From: an uncultured Methanosarcinales archaeon
GTDB taxonomy: Archaea; Nanobdellota; Nanobdellia; Woesearchaeales; CAXGTL01
DNA: 64,000 nucleotides
Assembly: GCA_964535955.1 (NCBI GenBank)
Contig: CAZHVK010000003.1
Span: 62,001 to 126,000 of the forward strand
Reading direction: 5' to 3'
How positions within the stretch are numbered: position 1 is the stretch's first letter; each line of letters opens with the position of its first letter. This document shows, in pieces, positions 15,479-56,855 of the stretch. Made by a program: the position numbers and the translations under genes. Under the pieces are notes generated by a model. The model was not told where the DNA came from. It saw nothing but the letters and a program-made list of their open reading frames with translations, and searched no databases.

Positions 15479-16138
15479 ATGAAACAAACAAAACATGCAA
15501 AAATATTCGAAGACAGAGGAAGAATATACACAATCAACCTAGTCAAGGGTAAAAAAGTTTATGGTGAAAGATTATTCATAGAAAGAGGAATTGAATATAG
15601 AGAGTGGGATATAAGAAGAAGTAAGTTAGGCGCTGCAATTAAAAAAAATATAAAACAATTAGGTTTTAAGCCAGGCAATGTAGTATTATATTTAGGATCA
15701 GCTTCTGGAACTACAGTGAGTCATGTATCAGATATTATTGGGCCAAAAGGTCTCATCTTCGCACTTGAATTCGCTCCAAGAGTTATGAGAGATCTTATGT
15801 TTATGTGTAATGACAGAAAAAACATTGCACCTATTCTAGCAGATGCACATCAACCACAAAAATATGAAGACAAAATGTGTATGGTTGATTTTGTATTTCA
15901 AGATATTGCTCAAAAAGACCAAGCAGAAATCTTCCTAAGGAATTGTGAACTATTTCTAAAAGATGATGGATTAGCAATAATTGCAATCAAATCAAGAAGT
16001 ATAGATATTACTAAAAAACCAACATTAATTTACAAAATAGTTGAGAACAAACTTAAAGAAAAAATGGATGTCATAGACTTCAAAACATTAGATCCATTTG
16101 AAAGAGATCATTGTGTATTTTTGTGTAGAAAGAGATAA
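15479..16138 (+). CDS. flpA: Fibrillarin-like rRNA/tRNA 2'-O-methyltransferase
   Basis: VYGE, YREW..RSKLGAAI, VLYLGSASGTTVSHVSD, FQDIAQKDQ, LDPFERDH. Follows nop5. Confidence 0.96.
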   Translation: MKQTKHAKIFEDRGRIYTINLVKGKKVYGERLFIERGIEYREWDIRRSKLGAAIKKNIKQLGFKPGNVVLYLGSASGTTVSHVSDIIGPKGLIFALEFAPRVMRDLMFMCNDRKNIAPILADAHQPQKYEDKMCMVDFVFQDIAQKDQAEIFLRNCELFLKDDGLAIIAIKSRSIDITKKPTLIYKIVENKLKEKMDVIDFKTLDPFERDHCVFLCRKR

Positions 16139-16169
16139 AAATAAACGTAAATATTGCCACTTTAAAATC

Positions 16170-16183
16170 GAAACATTTAAATA
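16170..16183 (+). promoter_or_regulatory. BRE/TATA promoter (GAAACA-TTTAAATA) for a leaderless transcript starting near 16207
   Basis: TATA-like box ends about 23 nt before the ATG at 16207, the usual archaeal TATA-to-start spacing. Confidence 0.65.
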
Positions 16184-16206
16184 GTTTTTATACACTACTT
16201 ATTACT

Positions 16207-16245
16207 ATGACAAAAACAAATTATTTAGGATGTTGTTGTTGTTAG
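16207..16245 (+). CDS. Putative polycysteine leader peptide MTKTNYLGCCCC
   Basis: atg aca aaa aca aat tat tta gga tgt tgt tgt tgt tag, placed between a TATA box and tRNA-Cys/cysK/cysS. Confidence 0.75.
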   Translation: MTKTNYLGCCCC

Positions 16246-16304
16246 AATTCTTTCATTGTTTTAGTTTTTAATCTATAATCATTCAAGATTATCATGATTA
16301 TTCT

Positions 16305-16376
16305 GGAAGTGTGGCCAAGCGGCTAAGGCAAGAGGCTGCAACCCTCTGATCCTGGGTTCAAGTCCCAGCACTTCCT
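16305..16376 (+). tRNA. tRNA-Cys (GCA)
   Basis: Acceptor GGAAGTG/CACTTCC, D-arm GCC/GGC, anticodon stem AGAGG/CCTCT with loop CT-GCA-AC, T-arm CTGGG-TTCAAGT-CCCAG, discriminator U. No encoded CCA. Confidence 0.97.
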
Positions 16377-16477
16377 TCTCAAAAACTAAGATAATAATGA
16401 AAGAAACAATAAAACAAAGAATAAGATGAAAAAAATAAAAAATAAATTAGAATAAATAATATTGGAGGCGAATAAAA

Positions 16478-17371
16478 ATGAAAAATAACATATTATGGAC
16501 AATAGGAGACACACCCCTTGTAAAAATAAATAAATTAAACCCTAATAAAAATGTAAAGATCTATGCAAAATTAGAAGGGTTTAACCCAACTGGAAGTATA
16601 AAAGATAGAATTGCACTAAAGATGATCCAGCAAGCAGAAGTAGAAGGTATGCTAACAAAAGACAAAACAATAATAGAAGCAACATCAGGCAACACAGGAA
16701 TTGCTTTGGCAATGATTGGAACAGTTAGAGGATACAAAGTTGAAATTGTCATGAGTGAAGCTGTTTCAGTTGAAAGAAGGAAAATAATAAAAGCATTTGG
16801 AGCAAAGATTACATTAACAGACCCAACTCAAGGAACAGATGGTGCAATTAGAAAAGTAAAAGAATTGACTGAAAAATATCCAGATAAATATTTTACACCA
16901 GATCAATTTACAAACAAGTACAATAAGATTGCACATTATAAAACAACTGCAGAAGAAATTTGGAGAGATACTGGTGGAGAAATAGATTATTTTGTTTCTT
17001 CATTAGGAACATCTGGTACAATCATGGGTGTTGGTCTTGGATTAAAAGAAAACAATCCAAATATAAAGATTGTTGAAGCACATCCTGTAAAAGGGCATTA
17101 TATCCAAGGCTTGAAAAATATGGAAGAAGCAATTGTTCCTGCAATCTATGATCCATCAAAGATTGATGAATCAATAATGATAGAGACAGAAGATGCATTT
17201 GAGATAACTCGGCAGATTGTAAAACAAGAAGGTATATTTGTAGGTATGAGTAGTGGAGCAGCACTCTTAGCAGCAATAGAAATAGCAAAAAAAATTGATT
17301 CAGGCACAATAGTTGTTATATTTCCAGACAGAGGGGAAAAGTATTTAAGTACAACATTATTTAATGAATAA
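16478..17371 (+). CDS. cysK: Cysteine synthase (O-acetylserine sulfhydrylase, CysK/CysM family)
   Basis: IGDTPLV, NPTGSIKDR (PLP Lys), EATSGNTG, GTSGT, GMSSGA, PDRGEKYLST. GGAGG SD upstream. Confidence 0.93.
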   Translation: MKNNILWTIGDTPLVKINKLNPNKNVKIYAKLEGFNPTGSIKDRIALKMIQQAEVEGMLTKDKTIIEATSGNTGIALAMIGTVRGYKVEIVMSEAVSVERRKIIKAFGAKITLTDPTQGTDGAIRKVKELTEKYPDKYFTPDQFTNKYNKIAHYKTTAEEIWRDTGGEIDYFVSSLGTSGTIMGVGLGLKENNPNIKIVEAHPVKGHYIQGLKNMEEAIVPAIYDPSKIDESIMIETEDAFEITRQIVKQEGIFVGMSSGAALLAAIEIAKKIDSGTIVVIFPDRGEKYLSTTLFNE

Positions 17372-17389
17372 AGTACAAAGGTGAAGAAT

Positions 17390-18805
17390 ATGAAAAAACA
17401 CGAATTGTATTTATATAATACACTCACAAGAAAAAAAGAATTATTTAAGCCAATAGTTTCAGGAGAAGTGGGATTCTATAGTTGTGGGCCTACTGTTTAC
17501 TGGAATCAGCATATTGGGAATCTAAGGACTTATGTTTTTAATGATATTCTTAAAAGAGTATTATTATATGATGGATATAAAGTAAAACACATTATGAATG
17601 TCACAGATGTTGGCCACCTTACCAGTGATGCTGATACTGGCGAAGACAAGATGGAAAAAGCAGCTGCAAAAGAAGGAAAAAAAGCACAAGACATTGCAGA
17701 TTATTATTGGAAAATATTTAGACAAGACTTTAGAAAACTAAATATTATTGAACCAGATGTATGGTGTAAAGCAACTGAATACATACAAGAACAAATTAAT
17801 ATGTTAAAAGTTCTTGAAAAAAAAGGCTTCACATATAAAACATCTGATGGTATTTATTTTGATTCATTAAAATTAAATGATTATGGTAAATTAGCAAAAC
17901 TAAAGATAGAAGGATTAAAAGCAGGAATAAGAACAGATGTAAGAGAAAAAAAAAACCCAACTGATTTTGCTTTGTGGAAATTTTCAGAAAAACCAGGAAT
18001 AAGACAACAAGAATGGAACTCACCTTGGGGAATTGGGTTTCCAGGTTGGCATCTCGAATGTTCTGCAATGGCAGCAAAACATTTAGGTAAACAATTTGAT
18101 ATTCATACAGGTGGTGAAGACCATATCACTGTTCACCATACAAATGAGATTGCACAAGCAGAAGCAGCTTTTGGCAAAAAACCATGGGTAAAGTATTGGT
18201 TACATGGAGCTTTTTTAACATCAAAAGGTGAAAAAATCAGCAAAAGCAAAGGAGGTTTATTTACAATAGATAACTTAGAAGAAAAAAGATTCAAACCTTT
18301 AAGTTACAGATACTTGTGTCTTAATACACATTATAGAAAACAATTAAGCTTTTCATTAGAAGTTTTAAAAAATGCAGAAAAATCATATGATAGATTAAGA
18401 ACCATAATCAGAGATTTAAAACAAGAAAAAGATAAATCAAAAACAGAACAAAATACAAATAAACAAGAAATAAATGAATTATATTTAACAAAATTCGAAG
18501 ATGCAATCAATGACGATCTTAACATGCCACAAGCATTAGCAGTTTTATGGGACTTTGTTAGAGACAAAGATGCAAAAGGTAAATTAAAGACAATTGAAGA
18601 AATGGAAAAAGTGTTTGCTTTGGATTTGTTAGTTGAAGAAGAGAAAGTTAAAGTTTCTGATAAAATCACAAAACTTATTGATGAGCGTGAACAAGCAAGA
18701 AAAGACAAAGATTTTGCAAAAGCAGATAAAATAAGGGATAAACTAAAAGAAAAAGGAATAATTCTAGAAGATACTAAAGATGGTGTTAGGTGGAAAAAAG
18801 TTTAA
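17390..18805 (+). CDS. cysS: Cysteine--tRNA ligase
   Basis: CGPTVY, HIGN, DFALWK, PGWHLECSAM, DIHTGG..HHTNE, KISKS, AD.IRD.L. AAGGTGA SD before ATG 17390. Confidence 0.97.
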   Translation: MKKHELYLYNTLTRKKELFKPIVSGEVGFYSCGPTVYWNQHIGNLRTYVFNDILKRVLLYDGYKVKHIMNVTDVGHLTSDADTGEDKMEKAAAKEGKKAQDIADYYWKIFRQDFRKLNIIEPDVWCKATEYIQEQINMLKVLEKKGFTYKTSDGIYFDSLKLNDYGKLAKLKIEGLKAGIRTDVREKKNPTDFALWKFSEKPGIRQQEWNSPWGIGFPGWHLECSAMAAKHLGKQFDIHTGGEDHITVHHTNEIAQAEAAFGKKPWVKYWLHGAFLTSKGEKISKSKGGLFTIDNLEEKRFKPLSYRYLCLNTHYRKQLSFSLEVLKNAEKSYDRLRTIIRDLKQEKDKSKTEQNTNKQEINELYLTKFEDAINDDLNMPQALAVLWDFVRDKDAKGKLKTIEEMEKVFALDLLVEEEKVKVSDKITKLIDEREQARKDKDFAKADKIRDKLKEKGIILEDTKDGVRWKKV

Positions 18806-18812
18806 TAGAGGA

Positions 18813-19304
18813 TTATTTATAATCATCTATTCCAAATTTATCTGCCAAACGTCTCCTACCTCTTTTAACAGATTCTCCATATTCTTTTTTTTGTTTTTTT
18901 CTTATTTCCTCGTTTCTTCTTAATTTCTTATTATAGTGGTTATCGATAAGAGTCTCCCAATCACCAGGAATAAAACAATCAATATTATGAGGATAAGATG
19001 TGTAATCATAGACACTACCTTTACATTGGAAAACTGTTTTTTTATTATAAATAATACTTAATTCCACTTCATATCTTGTAGGATCTAACTCAGGATCAAC
19101 ATCAGCATCAATTATTAATCCTTTTTCTAATTTCATGCGTCCTTTAAAATTTTTATATCCTATAAAAATATTAAACGCTTTCTTAAAAATCTCCTTATCT
19201 TTACCATCTGATCTTCTTTCTTCAACCAAATCTTCCAAAGTCCTTTTCCTATCTAAACTCTCTATCAAATTGGCTGAATCTGGAACTTCTATCAAGATAA
19301 ACAC
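18813..19304 (-). CDS. Hypothetical protein, last gene of the kinase/vWA operon
   Basis: 163-aa ORF overlapping the upstream gene end, strong GGAGGAGGTG SD. The true start may lie a few codons downstream. Confidence 0.6.
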   Translation of the reverse strand: MFILIEVPDSANLIESLDRKRTLEDLVEERRSDGKDKEIFKKAFNIFIGYKNFKGRMKLEKGLIIDADVDPELDPTRYEVELSIIYNKKTVFQCKGSVYDYTSYPHNIDCFIPGDWETLIDNHYNKKLRRNEEIRKKQKKEYGESVKRGRRRLADKFGIDDYK

Positions 19305-20289
19305 CTCCTCCTAAATATTCATCACCTATCCTTCTTGATCTTCTAGATGTGGAATGAATAATTTTTTTGTTTGTATAACTTTTTTTAAAAGCTTCAAAAA
19401 CATTTACAGCACTTGACAAGAACTGATCCTTTAGACAAAGTTCATCACAAAGCAGCATTCTTCTATAACCAATATCATAAAGCCAAGCAAGTTCTGATAA
19501 ATCAGCACAACTAGGCACTGGTTTATCAACTAATGATAACAAGATTCTTGAACCAGCCATTGCATCTGGATCTTTATCAACAATCAATTTAACAGCATCT
19601 AATATTTCATGAGGTTTATCAACTTCAACATAAAGATCACCACGAGCAGCCATCAAAGATAAATAATTATCTTTTCTAAATTCATTTGCAACATAATGCA
19701 AACCTTTTTTATCTTCTATCTTTAATATAATCTCAGCATCTTTACCAATATAATCTCTGAATTCTTCAACATCTCTTTGACTATGAGTATATGATAAACA
19801 ATATTTATTAAAACCAGCTTTTACTGCTTTTTGAATCTTTTCAATCTCATAATCAAGAAACATTGGACCATGTACTTGAAGAGTTGGTTCTCTTATGTGT
19901 AATGATTCACCTTCAGAGACCATAAAATGAGGTCCTCCCTGGAATATCAAGCGATTTCCACCAACTATCTTATCAAGAACACAATAATCTTCACCAGCTT
20001 TAAACAAAACAGTTGTAGGTGTCTTGACAGATATAGGATGGTTAAGTACAAGCTCAAGATGATCCTTATATGCTTCAACTTCTGTTACTCTCAATTGCCA
20101 ACCTTTTATATCAAAATACAAAGGTATATGATCTTCGATAGAGTTAGCAATCTCAAGCTCTCCATCAAGTTGATTACCCTTAATCATCGCACTGTTTAAT
20201 CTTATTCCACACAACCTATTATCTTTTGCAAACTTTTTAAAGTGTGGAAATGTCGGCCAAAGTGTTACCATCAATTCCAGGTCTTTCAT
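19249..20289 (-). CDS. Divergent pyruvate-kinase-like protein (barrel plus B domain, no C-terminal domain)
   Basis: VTLWP, IRLNS, FDIKG.QLRV, LSY, IILKIE, LMAARGDLYVEV and MLLCDE correspond to pyruvate kinase motifs. Only 346 aa. Confidence 0.8.
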   Translation of the reverse strand: MKDLELMVTLWPTFPHFKKFAKDNRLCGIRLNSAMIKGNQLDGELEIANSIEDHIPLYFDIKGWQLRVTEVEAYKDHLELVLNHPISVKTPTTVLFKAGEDYCVLDKIVGGNRLIFQGGPHFMVSEGESLHIREPTLQVHGPMFLDYEIEKIQKAVKAGFNKYCLSYTHSQRDVEEFRDYIGKDAEIILKIEDKKGLHYVANEFRKDNYLSLMAARGDLYVEVDKPHEILDAVKLIVDKDPDAMAGSRILLSLVDKPVPSCADLSELAWLYDIGYRRMLLCDELCLKDQFLSSAVNVFEAFKKSYTNKKIIHSTSRRSRRIGDEYLGGGVYLDRSSRFSQFDREFR

Positions 20290-20404: not shown

Positions 20405-21382
20405 CTAAATAAGTGATTTTGATTTTTCAGGATCCCCACTTCTCTTCATCACTGATTTTCCAGCCATTAACTTAGGAACAGATTTTCTTCCTTTTAGATA
20501 ATGTACAGGATTCAAAGATTTAAGAACTGTTTTTATTTGTCCTGGGTCTTGCCTATCTTTTAATTCGTCTTCAAAATAACCAATTCTTCCTGTTTCTTTT
20601 GCAAGTATACCAAAGATTACATCAACAACTCTAGAAGCATCAGGTAATACTGCAATATGATCTTCTCCTAAAAGCGACTTCCAAGAGTCATATACTACTT
20701 TATTTGTTCCAGTCATCCCATCACTAGAACAAGTGTCATATGACTTGATCACTAAATAGACAGAATATTTCCTTTGTAATTCTTTTACCAATCCTTCTGC
20801 ACTTAATCTATTTTCTAATGCATTATATGTCCAATTTTTTGCTTGTTTTTTATCAACAGATGGATACATTTTTTCATCTCCAATAAAGATAAATATTGGA
20901 TTCACCGCATTACTCATCTCAACATTTCTTGCATAATACAATGCTGCTAAGTCATAACTTTCTTGAATTTGGCCACCACCACCACCTTCAACTACTAATT
21001 CTTTTAATCTCTTTTCTAGATCAGTGCCTTTTGTAAAAGGTCTTACTTGCAATGGATAATTATCACAATATGCATCACCAACAGCTGCAAAACTAATTTC
21101 CATATCTTCACCAAGGTATTCTTTACCTTCTAATTCAAGATATGGCAGCTTAGAAAATATTGTTGCTGGCCAATCACCCATTGATCCTGTTACATCACAA
21201 GCAATTACCAATGGTGATATACATTTTGTTTCTAATTTTCCAGGCACAAGATCTTTTGGATCTTTTCCAGAACTAACTGCATCACCGTAACTTCTACCTA
21301 CATGCCTATCATATGTTTTACGTGCAGTTTTAAAACTATATCCTGTCCACGGTCCTGGGTCATAATCTCCTGCTTCAGACAT
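20405..21382 (-). CDS. Intracellular vWA-domain protein
   Basis: MIDAS-like DVTGSM, VGD..D..PLQV, EGGGGG..ESY, IFIGDE. No signal peptide. Confidence 0.85.
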   Translation of the reverse strand: MSEAGDYDPGPWTGYSFKTARKTYDRHVGRSYGDAVSSGKDPKDLVPGKLETKCISPLVIACDVTGSMGDWPATIFSKLPYLELEGKEYLGEDMEISFAAVGDAYCDNYPLQVRPFTKGTDLEKRLKELVVEGGGGGQIQESYDLAALYYARNVEMSNAVNPIFIFIGDEKMYPSVDKKQAKNWTYNALENRLSAEGLVKELQRKYSVYLVIKSYDTCSSDGMTGTNKVVYDSWKSLLGEDHIAVLPDASRVVDVIFGILAKETGRIGYFEDELKDRQDPGQIKTVLKSLNPVHYLKGRKSVPKLMAGKSVMKRSGDPEKSKSLI

Positions 21383-21467
21383 TTTTTATCCCTCCATATA
21401 TTTTATACCTTATTTTTAGGGATTACAAACTAGCAAGATCAGTTACTCATCCCCAAAAAATTTTGTT

Positions 21468-22469
21468 TTATAAGCCCGGTATTGGCTTAAAACCAGAGCT
21501 GATTCTTCCAAAACTTTCTTTTCTTACTTTCCTTATTGTTTCACATAAATCTTCTTTATGCCAGTTAGGTCTTGAAAGAACATCTCTAACAATTAATCTT
21601 CTAATGAATTCACATAAAGGATCAGGAACATAATTAGGCACTTTTTTTCTTTGAACATCACCACCTACCGCATATATCATAGTTATACCTAAACCATAGA
21701 AGTCTGATTCTGGAATCAAAACATCTCCTGCCTGTTGTTCAGGAGAAGCAAAATAAGGTGTATAACCCTTGCAATAAGATTCATCTTTAGGTCTTATAAG
21801 TGATAGACCATAATCTACCAAAACAACAGTATGATCTTTAGGTTGAATAATAATATTCTGTGGCTTAACATCACCATGAACAACACCATGATAGTGTAAA
21901 TATTTTAATGCATTTAATGCACGCTCAGAAATCCAAGCAACATGTTCAGGATCTAATTTTCCAACTTTTGTGACTAATTGTTCAATAGTAGGACCAGGAA
22001 CATAACTCATAACAATTGCAGGACTACCATCTTCTAATTTTAAGATATCCCTCATAGTAGGAATACTAAAATGTCTTAAATCCCATATTGCTTTTGCTTC
22101 TTCTATTAATATCAATTCATCCTGAGGAGAAACATAATGACCATGCTTGATACAAACTGGTTCTTCAGCAATCATGTGCTCACCCTTATATGTCTTGCCA
22201 AAACCACCTTCTGCAAGTTGTTCTATAATCCTATAATTCCCAATAATCTTTCCTTCTAGATTATTTCTTTCATAATCATATTTTTCCTTTTTCTTAGGAC
22301 TCAAAAGAATTCTTTTAGCCTCGTTAATGGATTTTGCTAAATCTTCATCACCCTTTTTATCAGGGTGATATTCTTTCATTAATGTTTTATAAGCAGCTTG
22401 TATCACAGAAGGTCTTGCCCTTGGGCTTACTTCAAGAATTTCATATAAACTATAATTTTTATTTTTCAT
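21468..22469 (-). CDS. DnaJ J-domain fused to a Hanks-type Ser/Thr protein kinase
   Basis: YEILEV..AYKTL..YHPDK..INEAKRIL..YD (J domain with HPD). Kinase motifs AEGGFG, CIK, HGDVKPQN, DYG, ASPE, SDFYGLG. Confidence 0.92.
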   Translation of the reverse strand: MKNKNYSLYEILEVSPRARPSVIQAAYKTLMKEYHPDKKGDEDLAKSINEAKRILLSPKKKEKYDYERNNLEGKIIGNYRIIEQLAEGGFGKTYKGEHMIAEEPVCIKHGHYVSPQDELILIEEAKAIWDLRHFSIPTMRDILKLEDGSPAIVMSYVPGPTIEQLVTKVGKLDPEHVAWISERALNALKYLHYHGVVHGDVKPQNIIIQPKDHTVVLVDYGLSLIRPKDESYCKGYTPYFASPEQQAGDVLIPESDFYGLGITMIYAVGGDVQRKKVPNYVPDPLCEFIRRLIVRDVLSRPNWHKEDLCETIRKVRKESFGRISSGFKPIPGL

Positions 22470-22584
22470 TTCAAATATAAGGTAGTAAGCATACAATATA
22501 TACATAACGTACTTTCAATAAGCTAAAAACGTTTTGTAAGTATTAATAGAAAAGTTTAAATACTAGTTTTACTAACCAAGATAT

Positions 22585-56580: not shown

Positions 56581-56855
56581 TGGCAAGCACACCCAGGAAT
56601 GAGCACAACCCAGCTTAATGGCTTAACCCTGACCTTTCCTTGGTCCTGCAACCCTAAGAGCACCAGTTTCATAGGTTATAGCTGCTTCATTCCTGACCTG
56701 ACTAATTTCCCTATGAAGCCAGTCCCAAAGGACAGAACTTCATTGTCCAGACCAGGACCATTAAACTAAAGCTATACCGCTTCCTGAGCTTCGATCCCAT
56801 CATATAGCCCAGTTATGGCAACAGGCAGGGGCTAACTACCCGATCTAGCTTACCA
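56581..56855 (-). ncRNA. ffs: Signal recognition particle RNA (archaeal 7S)
   Basis: GC-enriched ~275-nt region. Minus strand carries the helix-8 motif GTCAGGTCAGGAATGAAGCAGC, 5' GGTAAGC pairs with 3' GCTTGCC, and a TTTAAATA box lies about 22 nt upstream. Confidence 0.9.

Follow-up and report, generated by a model that had tools for sequence, protein, structure and literature searches.

A conserved polycysteine leader ORF ahead of cysteine genes in Woesearchaeales archaea, a candidate amino-acid attenuator

The leader locus

The window, meaning the whole 64,000-nucleotide stretch of DNA analyzed here, carries a short cysteine-ending ORF at the head of a co-oriented series of genes in the order leader ORF, tRNA-Cys, cysK/M, and cysS, with the nop5 and fibrillarin genes as its upstream neighbors. 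The features, read from the sequence, from the translation, or with the tools named, are as follows.

16170-16175 and 16176-16183, + strand: promoter, a purine-rich BRE-like stretch followed by the TATA box (-31 to -24 from the leader ATG)
16207-16245, + strand: predicted leaderless ORF of 12 codons, the last four of which are TGT (16231-16242), with the stop at 16243-16245
16246-16269, + strand: U-rich post-stop box, a candidate termination or cleavage site, with CAU at 16254-16256
16305-16376, + strand: tRNA-Cys(GCA), the sole tRNA-Cys that ARAGORN found in the assembly, for which it gave only about 12 tRNA lines, so that further tRNAs may be unassembled
16381-16405, + strand: stretch complementary to the box that could close a long stem round the tRNA; present in only four genomes
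16464-16468, + strand: GGAGG, Shine-Dalgarno sequence of cysK/M
16478-17371, + strand: cysteine synthase (CysK/CysM subfamily), TIGR01136 above cut-off
17390-18805, + strand: cysS, class I CysRS, with ATG at 17390 and an in-frame GTG at 17381, TIGR00435 above cut-off

The TATA box ends 23 nt before the leader ATG at 16207. The first-pass annotation had described this arrangement of a TATA box, a gap of about 23 nt, a 12-codon ORF with four terminal TGT codons, a U-rich tract, tRNA-Cys(GCA), cysteine synthase, and CysRS, and it was confirmed from the coordinates, ARAGORN, and the TIGR matches. The cysteine synthase exceeded the NCBIfam cysKM cut-off (387 versus 344 bits) and fell below both the cysM and the cysK equivalog cut-offs of NCBIfam. 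No clear cysE gene was found in the genome, just partial matches below the cut-offs, and for this reason the "self-contained" feedback loop proposed earlier is overstated. The tRNA could have a promoter of its own, given a TATA-like stretch at 16265-16272, and this counts against control of the tRNA by the leader.

Directly after the tRNA, a 10-codon ORF (16397-16429) begins within the box-complementary stretch, and in G002, G042, and G105 the tRNA is likewise followed by short AUG ORFs. Elsewhere in the window, the reverse strand encodes a distant pyruvate-kinase-like protein, far under the cut-offs (19249-20289); beside it lie genes that by eye look like those of a vWA protein and a J-domain kinase (20405-22505). 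An archaeal SRP RNA is also encoded on the reverse strand (56581-56855). A T-box or other curated riboswitch was rejected, as only the tRNA and the SRP RNA reach Rfam gathering scores in the window.

Conservation and distribution of the leader

Four consecutive TGY codons with a stop directly behind them occur just seven times on the two strands of the 1.49 Mb genome, and at least three Cys within the last seven codons were found in 2 of its 1167 TATA-led short ORFs, the window leader included. No leader for any other amino acid was prominent among these TATA-led short ORFs.

Regions upstream of cysK in relatives and in other archaeal genomes were searched, along the lines proposed with the first description of the locus, and short ORFs with terminal Cys runs were found. 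Within the order, 55 of 251 genomes have cysK/M, at 60 places, of which 59 were examined; four of these had less than 300 nt upstream, leaving 55 evaluable loci. At 35 of the 55 loci, the sense strand has a TATA-led short ORF with three or more Cys toward its 3′ end, compared with one locus for the antisense strand. The positive loci span many families, although related genomes among them are not independent. The TATA filter was broadened once the first examples were known; without it, the counts were 38 of 55 in sense versus 6 of 55 in antisense orientation. Three of the 55 loci come from unpublished genomes (positive in G209 and G211, negative in G134), and without them the leader stands at 33 of 52 loci. 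The strict leader is absent at 20 of the 55 loci, which counts against the attenuator reading given below; two of the leader-negative loci have a two-Cys version with the box described in the next section.

A second survey of the 251 genomes was anchored on the pattern itself (TATA, ATG, three TGY, TRR) and was blind to frame and neighbors. It revealed 48 places in 42 genomes, compared with one for the reversed-pattern control. The run was in frame with a true stop at 31 of the 48 places, and cysK, cysE, cysS, or tRNA-Cys lay within 1.4 kb of 27 of these; at the remaining four, the contig ends within about 470 nt. None of the 16 out-of-frame places had a cysteine gene nearby, and one further in-frame place, with a Trp ahead of the stop, does have one. 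A looser pattern (two Cys, a stop, and the CAU box) matched 360 of 401 genomes and was dropped as too unspecific.

For the comparison of leaders, we used a non-redundant pool of 53, in which the window and G002 leaders collapse into that of G105 (common stop context). The peptides are 7 to 29 codons long with 3 to 9 Cys, and Cys is the final residue in 49 of 53, part of the pool having been chosen for three TGY ahead of the stop. The Cys codons comprise 158 TGT and 56 TGC, both kinds occur together within 41 of the 53 leaders, and all three stop codons are represented. The non-Cys residues are unconserved, conservation being confined to the Cys tail. Thus, the conserved, in-frame poly-Cys ORF with TGT/TGC variation that the first-pass annotation had suggested testing for in relatives is borne out. 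An A-rich profile followed by TTTA(A/T)A spans -36 to -23 across the 53 leaders, a set chosen with the TATA filter, and position -1 is T in 41 of 53, as expected for a pyrimidine-purine start site at the predicted start. Between G000 and G002, the Cys run, stop, and box show no change in 40 positions and the TATA box none in 8, compared with 6 of 23 in the spacer and 3 of 21 bases in codons 2 to 8, all three of them amino-acid-changing.

Several genomes have a pair of leaders, which precede cysK and tRNA-Cys-cysS, respectively (for example G012, G041, and G067), and tRNA-Cys lies directly behind at least 12 of the 53 leaders, at times 25 to 30 nt from the stop. In G003, of the same genus, fibrillarin is joined straight to cysS, and the leader and cysK are both absent. 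A decayed cassette was seen upstream of cysS in G004 (L463), with the TATA box and the post-stop box retained, the Cys ORF lost, and cysK cut down to about 20 codons from its 3′ end. An in-frame cysK-cysS fusion follows the leader at L007 (G044), and G121 and G092 have frames of 776 to 780 codons that resemble it. At L183 (G052), two poly-Cys leaders with divergent promoters stand back to back, one of them ahead of tRNA-Cys and cysS. Other genes are headed by leaders as well (L010, L358, L396, and L177). These small ORFs may encode a sulfur carrier of the TusA type, a small membrane protein, an unknown protein of 200 residues, and a product resembling an acetyltransferase.

The leader itself had been recognized from the window, while its spread over three archaeal phyla, named here after record titles, and the conserved CAU box after its stop had gone unnoticed. 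In other Nanoarchaeota orders, belonging to the window's class, a leader was found at 2 of 4 evaluable loci. The Aenigmatarchaeota have it at 4 of 26 evaluable loci by the strict rule and at 6 by eye, with none in antisense orientation, and most of these leaders have a CAUUGG or similar box. In one Thermoplasmatota class, leaders occur at 5 of 30 cysK-family loci in a cysK-anchored search, about half of the 30 being distant homologs; the TATA pattern gave 11 places in 9 of 201 Thermoplasmatota genomes, none convincing as a leader by eye, and Methanomassiliicoccales-titled records had a leader in 0 of 9. A pattern scan of metagenomes gave, among 80 of 119 loci, two with cysK downstream, a third that was leader-like, and otherwise noise. 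Among the 80 closest cysK homologs, a leader was found in 6 of 21 archaeal records, and one of the archaeal form in 0 of 59 bacterial records. In a FastTree tree of 177 cysK proteins, from which the unpublished genomes were left out, the window cysK is placed among bacterial sequences with low support, and the leader-bearing genes are scattered over the whole tree; therefore, the leader is not tied to one cysK lineage. It occurs before unrelated cysK lineages and before cysE, cysS, and tRNA-Cys.

Variants were also seen. Three Aenigmatarchaeota tRNA-Cys-cysK loci (L426, L427, and L440) have short upstream ORFs in which, by eye, one Leu-Cys pair lies close to the stop, perhaps a variant with just one Cys, and L429 and L431 have a tandem pair of Cys-ending short ORFs ahead of cysK. 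In a Parcubacteria record (L120), the region about 165 to 10 nt upstream of cysK has a bacterial -35/-10 promoter and a leaderless 19-codon ORF with three mid-ORF Cys codons, followed by a hairpin and a U-run. This CPR bacterium thereby seems to have a Cys attenuator of the classical type.

The conserved box after the stop codon

Comparison of the 53 leaders revealed a box with the approximate consensus UUCUUUCAUUGUYYUAGUU. A CAT lies 6 to 12 nt past the stop in 41 of 53 leaders, compared with a mean of 7.6 and a maximum of 18 in 2000 shuffles, and the spacing inside the box is fixed, with an A at CAT+9 in 35 of 42. The CAUUG core recurs in three phyla. In a genome-wide profile scan, the window box had the top score (22.7, the next being 17.1), with a training set that contained the window's own context. 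The profile was not enriched at ordinary gene ends of the genome, and because these are unmarked, the box is not the general terminator, a point against the proposal below. Searched alone in 301 genomes of the phylum, the box matched 13 places, about the control level, and made sense only at two Cys leaders; accordingly, there was no sign of it behind leaders for other amino acids.

Several observations run the other way. Twelve of the 53 leaders have no CAT at +6 to +12, which counts against an output based on the box, and 12 of 53 have no four consecutive U within 60 nt, which counts against termination as the output. At L007, cysK starts just 16 nt past the leader stop, and this counts against the proposal below. 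Pairing of the box with the leader's own AUG (p 0.18) and with a partial 16S rRNA (11 of 200 shuffles equally good) were considered and rejected.

A proposed ribosome-based sensor and its alternatives

In bacteria, runs of cognate codons in leader peptides control biosynthetic operons. The archaeal element is real and conserved, and it is most likely a regulatory leader that works like these amino-acid attenuators but falls outside the known families in the structural tests. Control of this kind is described so far only in bacteria, and no archaeal amino-acid leader peptide was found in print by a literature search that missed most subscription papers. A two-codon Met-Trp ORF before trpY of Methanothermobacter has reportedly been proposed to attenuate translation and would be a partial precedent. 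Archaeal trp control is described as acting through DNA-binding proteins (PMC6737238), no transcription attenuation or antitermination was known in archaea as of 2021 (PMC8448881), and a 2026 review contains no word beginning with "attenuat" (PMC13675443).

We hypothesize that the element is a ribosome-based sensor of charged Cys-tRNA, a role that the frame, position, and gene linkage of the Cys run make very probable. Transcription would start at the leader AUG, as the promoter spacing suggests, and the ribosome would load at the 5′ end. When Cys-tRNA is scarce, the ribosome is expected from known decoding to stall on the terminal Cys codons, right against the box, where it would keep aCPSF1/FttA, or U-tract termination, off the nascent RNA, and RNA polymerase would then read into tRNA-Cys, cysK, and cysS. 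With ample Cys, the ribosome would complete the ORF and depart, the box would be exposed, and the transcript would be cut or terminated. In our judgment it is an even call whether the stalled ribosome acts in this way, by preventing transcripts from being terminated early or cleaved during synthesis at the box, with aCPSF1/FttA as the probable factor; the aCPSF1 gene is encoded in the genome. Since translational control cannot regulate a tRNA-Cys located 25 to 30 nt past the stop, an output at read-through or processing is favored over control of translation start, in line with the original proposal for the window and with tRNA-Cys being the first gene behind those 12 or more leaders.

The published dimensions bear on this proposal in both directions. 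The ribosome extends 15 to 16 nt past the P-site start (PMC7261190), and a stall would therefore cover the Cys run, the stop, and up to 6 to 7 nt beyond; the CAU itself would be left uncovered, which counts against the proposal. FttA requires RNA from -1 to -36; its cut lies 22 nt from the 3′ end, and the U-rich RNA that it binds is 9 to 14 nt upstream of the cut (PMC11616081). By arithmetic from these numbers, taken from other organisms, a cut at CAU would place the U-rich site of FttA on the last Cys codon and the stop, where a ribosome on the Cys run could cover it. The optimal base at the FttA cut is U rather than C (PMC11616081), which counts against a cut at CAU, and exclusion of FttA by the ribosome was offered in the same 2024 paper only as a hypothesis. 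The presence of aCPSF1 on early elongation complexes fits premature termination (PMC8448881), and the preference of aCPSF1 for single-stranded CA in vitro (PMC3553952) also speaks for the proposal. The fullest version of the proposal, to which we give somewhat less than an even chance, is that archaea would here have their first transcription attenuator: a ribosome loaded without a leader and held at the Cys codons would sterically exclude the CPSF73-like nuclease aCPSF1/FttA from a dedicated CAU box, the speed of Cys decoding in the cell would set tRNA-Cys, synthetase, and cysteine synthesis, and the module would be kept across three phyla with cysK swapped.

The closest known counterparts are bacterial. 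The polycysteine leaderless sORFs of the mycobacterial "Cys ribulon" (10.1101/834739) are also short ORFs with a C-terminal Cys run that head cysK/cysE operons, at several loci per genome, as in some relatives here. They differ in that their Cys tract pairs with a downstream Shine-Dalgarno sequence, a pairing that the archaeal leaders lack, and only the archaeal leader has a TATA promoter, a conserved CAU box, and tRNA-Cys and cysS as targets. Actinobacterial cys leader peptides (PMC1262725) share the Cys runs near the stop and the absence of a conserved hairpin; their authors proposed factor-dependent (Rho) termination at unconserved polyY sites, whereas the archaeal leader has a conserved box and aCPSF1/FttA as the candidate factor. 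Termination by aCPSF1/FttA, also inside operons, likewise uses a U-rich cis element and a factor that is encoded here, and the available parts of these reports describe no ribosome-gated, nutrient-responsive case (PMC11616081, PMC10450193, and PMC8448881).

Rho-dependent attenuation at E. coli tnaC is alike in its proposed logic, with a ribosome stalled at the leader end blocking a termination-factor site just downstream. The sensor differs: TnaC senses free Trp through its nascent peptide, and the archaeal leader would use a cognate codon run. The classical trp/his attenuators also have a cognate codon run in the leader of a biosynthetic operon, but they use terminator/antiterminator hairpins, which the archaeal leader lacks, and the archaeal Cys codons are terminal rather than mid-ORF. 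A hairpin attenuator of the trp/his type was rejected for the window, with no terminator-like site in 16100-16520 and local folds equal to shuffles.

Several alternatives keep the same sensor and change the output. The best surviving of them, which we regard as unlikely, is post-transcriptional: the full transcript would be cut at the box, or tRNA processing would be steered, unless ribosomes queue on the Cys run. In its favor, the in vitro preference of aCPSF1 for single-stranded CA was measured on free RNA (PMC3553952), the leading edge of a terminating ribosome (+9/10) would by arithmetic land on the CAU, and in the window a long stem that encloses the tRNA, folded from 16205-16500 (z -2.5; equaled in 2 of 200 shuffles), could mask the box after synthesis of the tRNA. 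The partner stretch of that stem, however, recurs solely in G002, G042, and G105, and pairing of the box with downstream RNA was no better than shuffles (mean duplex z 0.17 over 52 leaders).

Less likely again is a mycobacterial-type or hairpin output, in which a free Cys tract or the box would pair with the Shine-Dalgarno sequence, the start codon, or a local partner. Such pairing has been demonstrated in mycobacteria (10.1101/834739), about six long leaders have a small stop-in-loop hairpin by eye, and a weak covariation links box +10 to the third base of the terminal Cys codon (p 0.013, for one of six columns and with kin that are not independent). Over the whole set, however, pairing of the Cys tract with downstream RNA was at the level of shuffles (mean z -0.29), the 4 of 52 leaders that fell below -2 showing it at inconsistent places, and a mycobacterial-type output is for this reason not indicated. 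The box against the next start codon behaved like permuted pairs (p 0.42-0.88), the local fold averaged -4.09 compared with -4.05 kcal/mol for shuffles, with p ≤0.05 in just 4 of 53 leaders, and pairing would be unable to control a tRNA. This absence of general RNA pairing counts for a factor-based output.

We give the same low weight to a box that acts as a polymerase pause signal, or as the target of a dedicated regulator that binds RNA or DNA and that the ribosome would displace or outrun. Sequence specificity, the fixed inner spacing, and uniqueness in the genome suit this reading, as does a resemblance to the NusG pause motif TTNTTT (PMC12288461), but the motif occurs in just 16 of 53 leaders, the CAUUG core in three phyla favors a universal reader, and an unsystematic look revealed no regulator gene traveling with the leader.

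Without the sensor, the Cys content of the peptides could suggest a trans-acting micropeptide with a role in metal or thiol binding; this is improbable, given that length and non-Cys residues are unconserved and that the ORF always comes first in the cysteine operon and is linked to a box in cis. The all-TGT run in the window and the 58 triple TGY runs ahead of a stop triplet in this AT-rich genome might suggest a TGT microsatellite or an ORF that arose by chance. This reading is contradicted by the conserved frame, the synonymous TGT/TGC variation, the conservation of the Cys tail alone, and the linkage to cysteine genes, and we consider its probability negligible.

Small-genome archaea are usually regarded as lightly regulated symbionts. 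If the proposed attenuator operates, amino-acid supply in such archaea would be regulated, with a tRNA gene under the control of its own decoding, and the leader would be a natural switch of about 70 nt on which archaeal attenuation and ribosome-FttA exclusion can both be examined.
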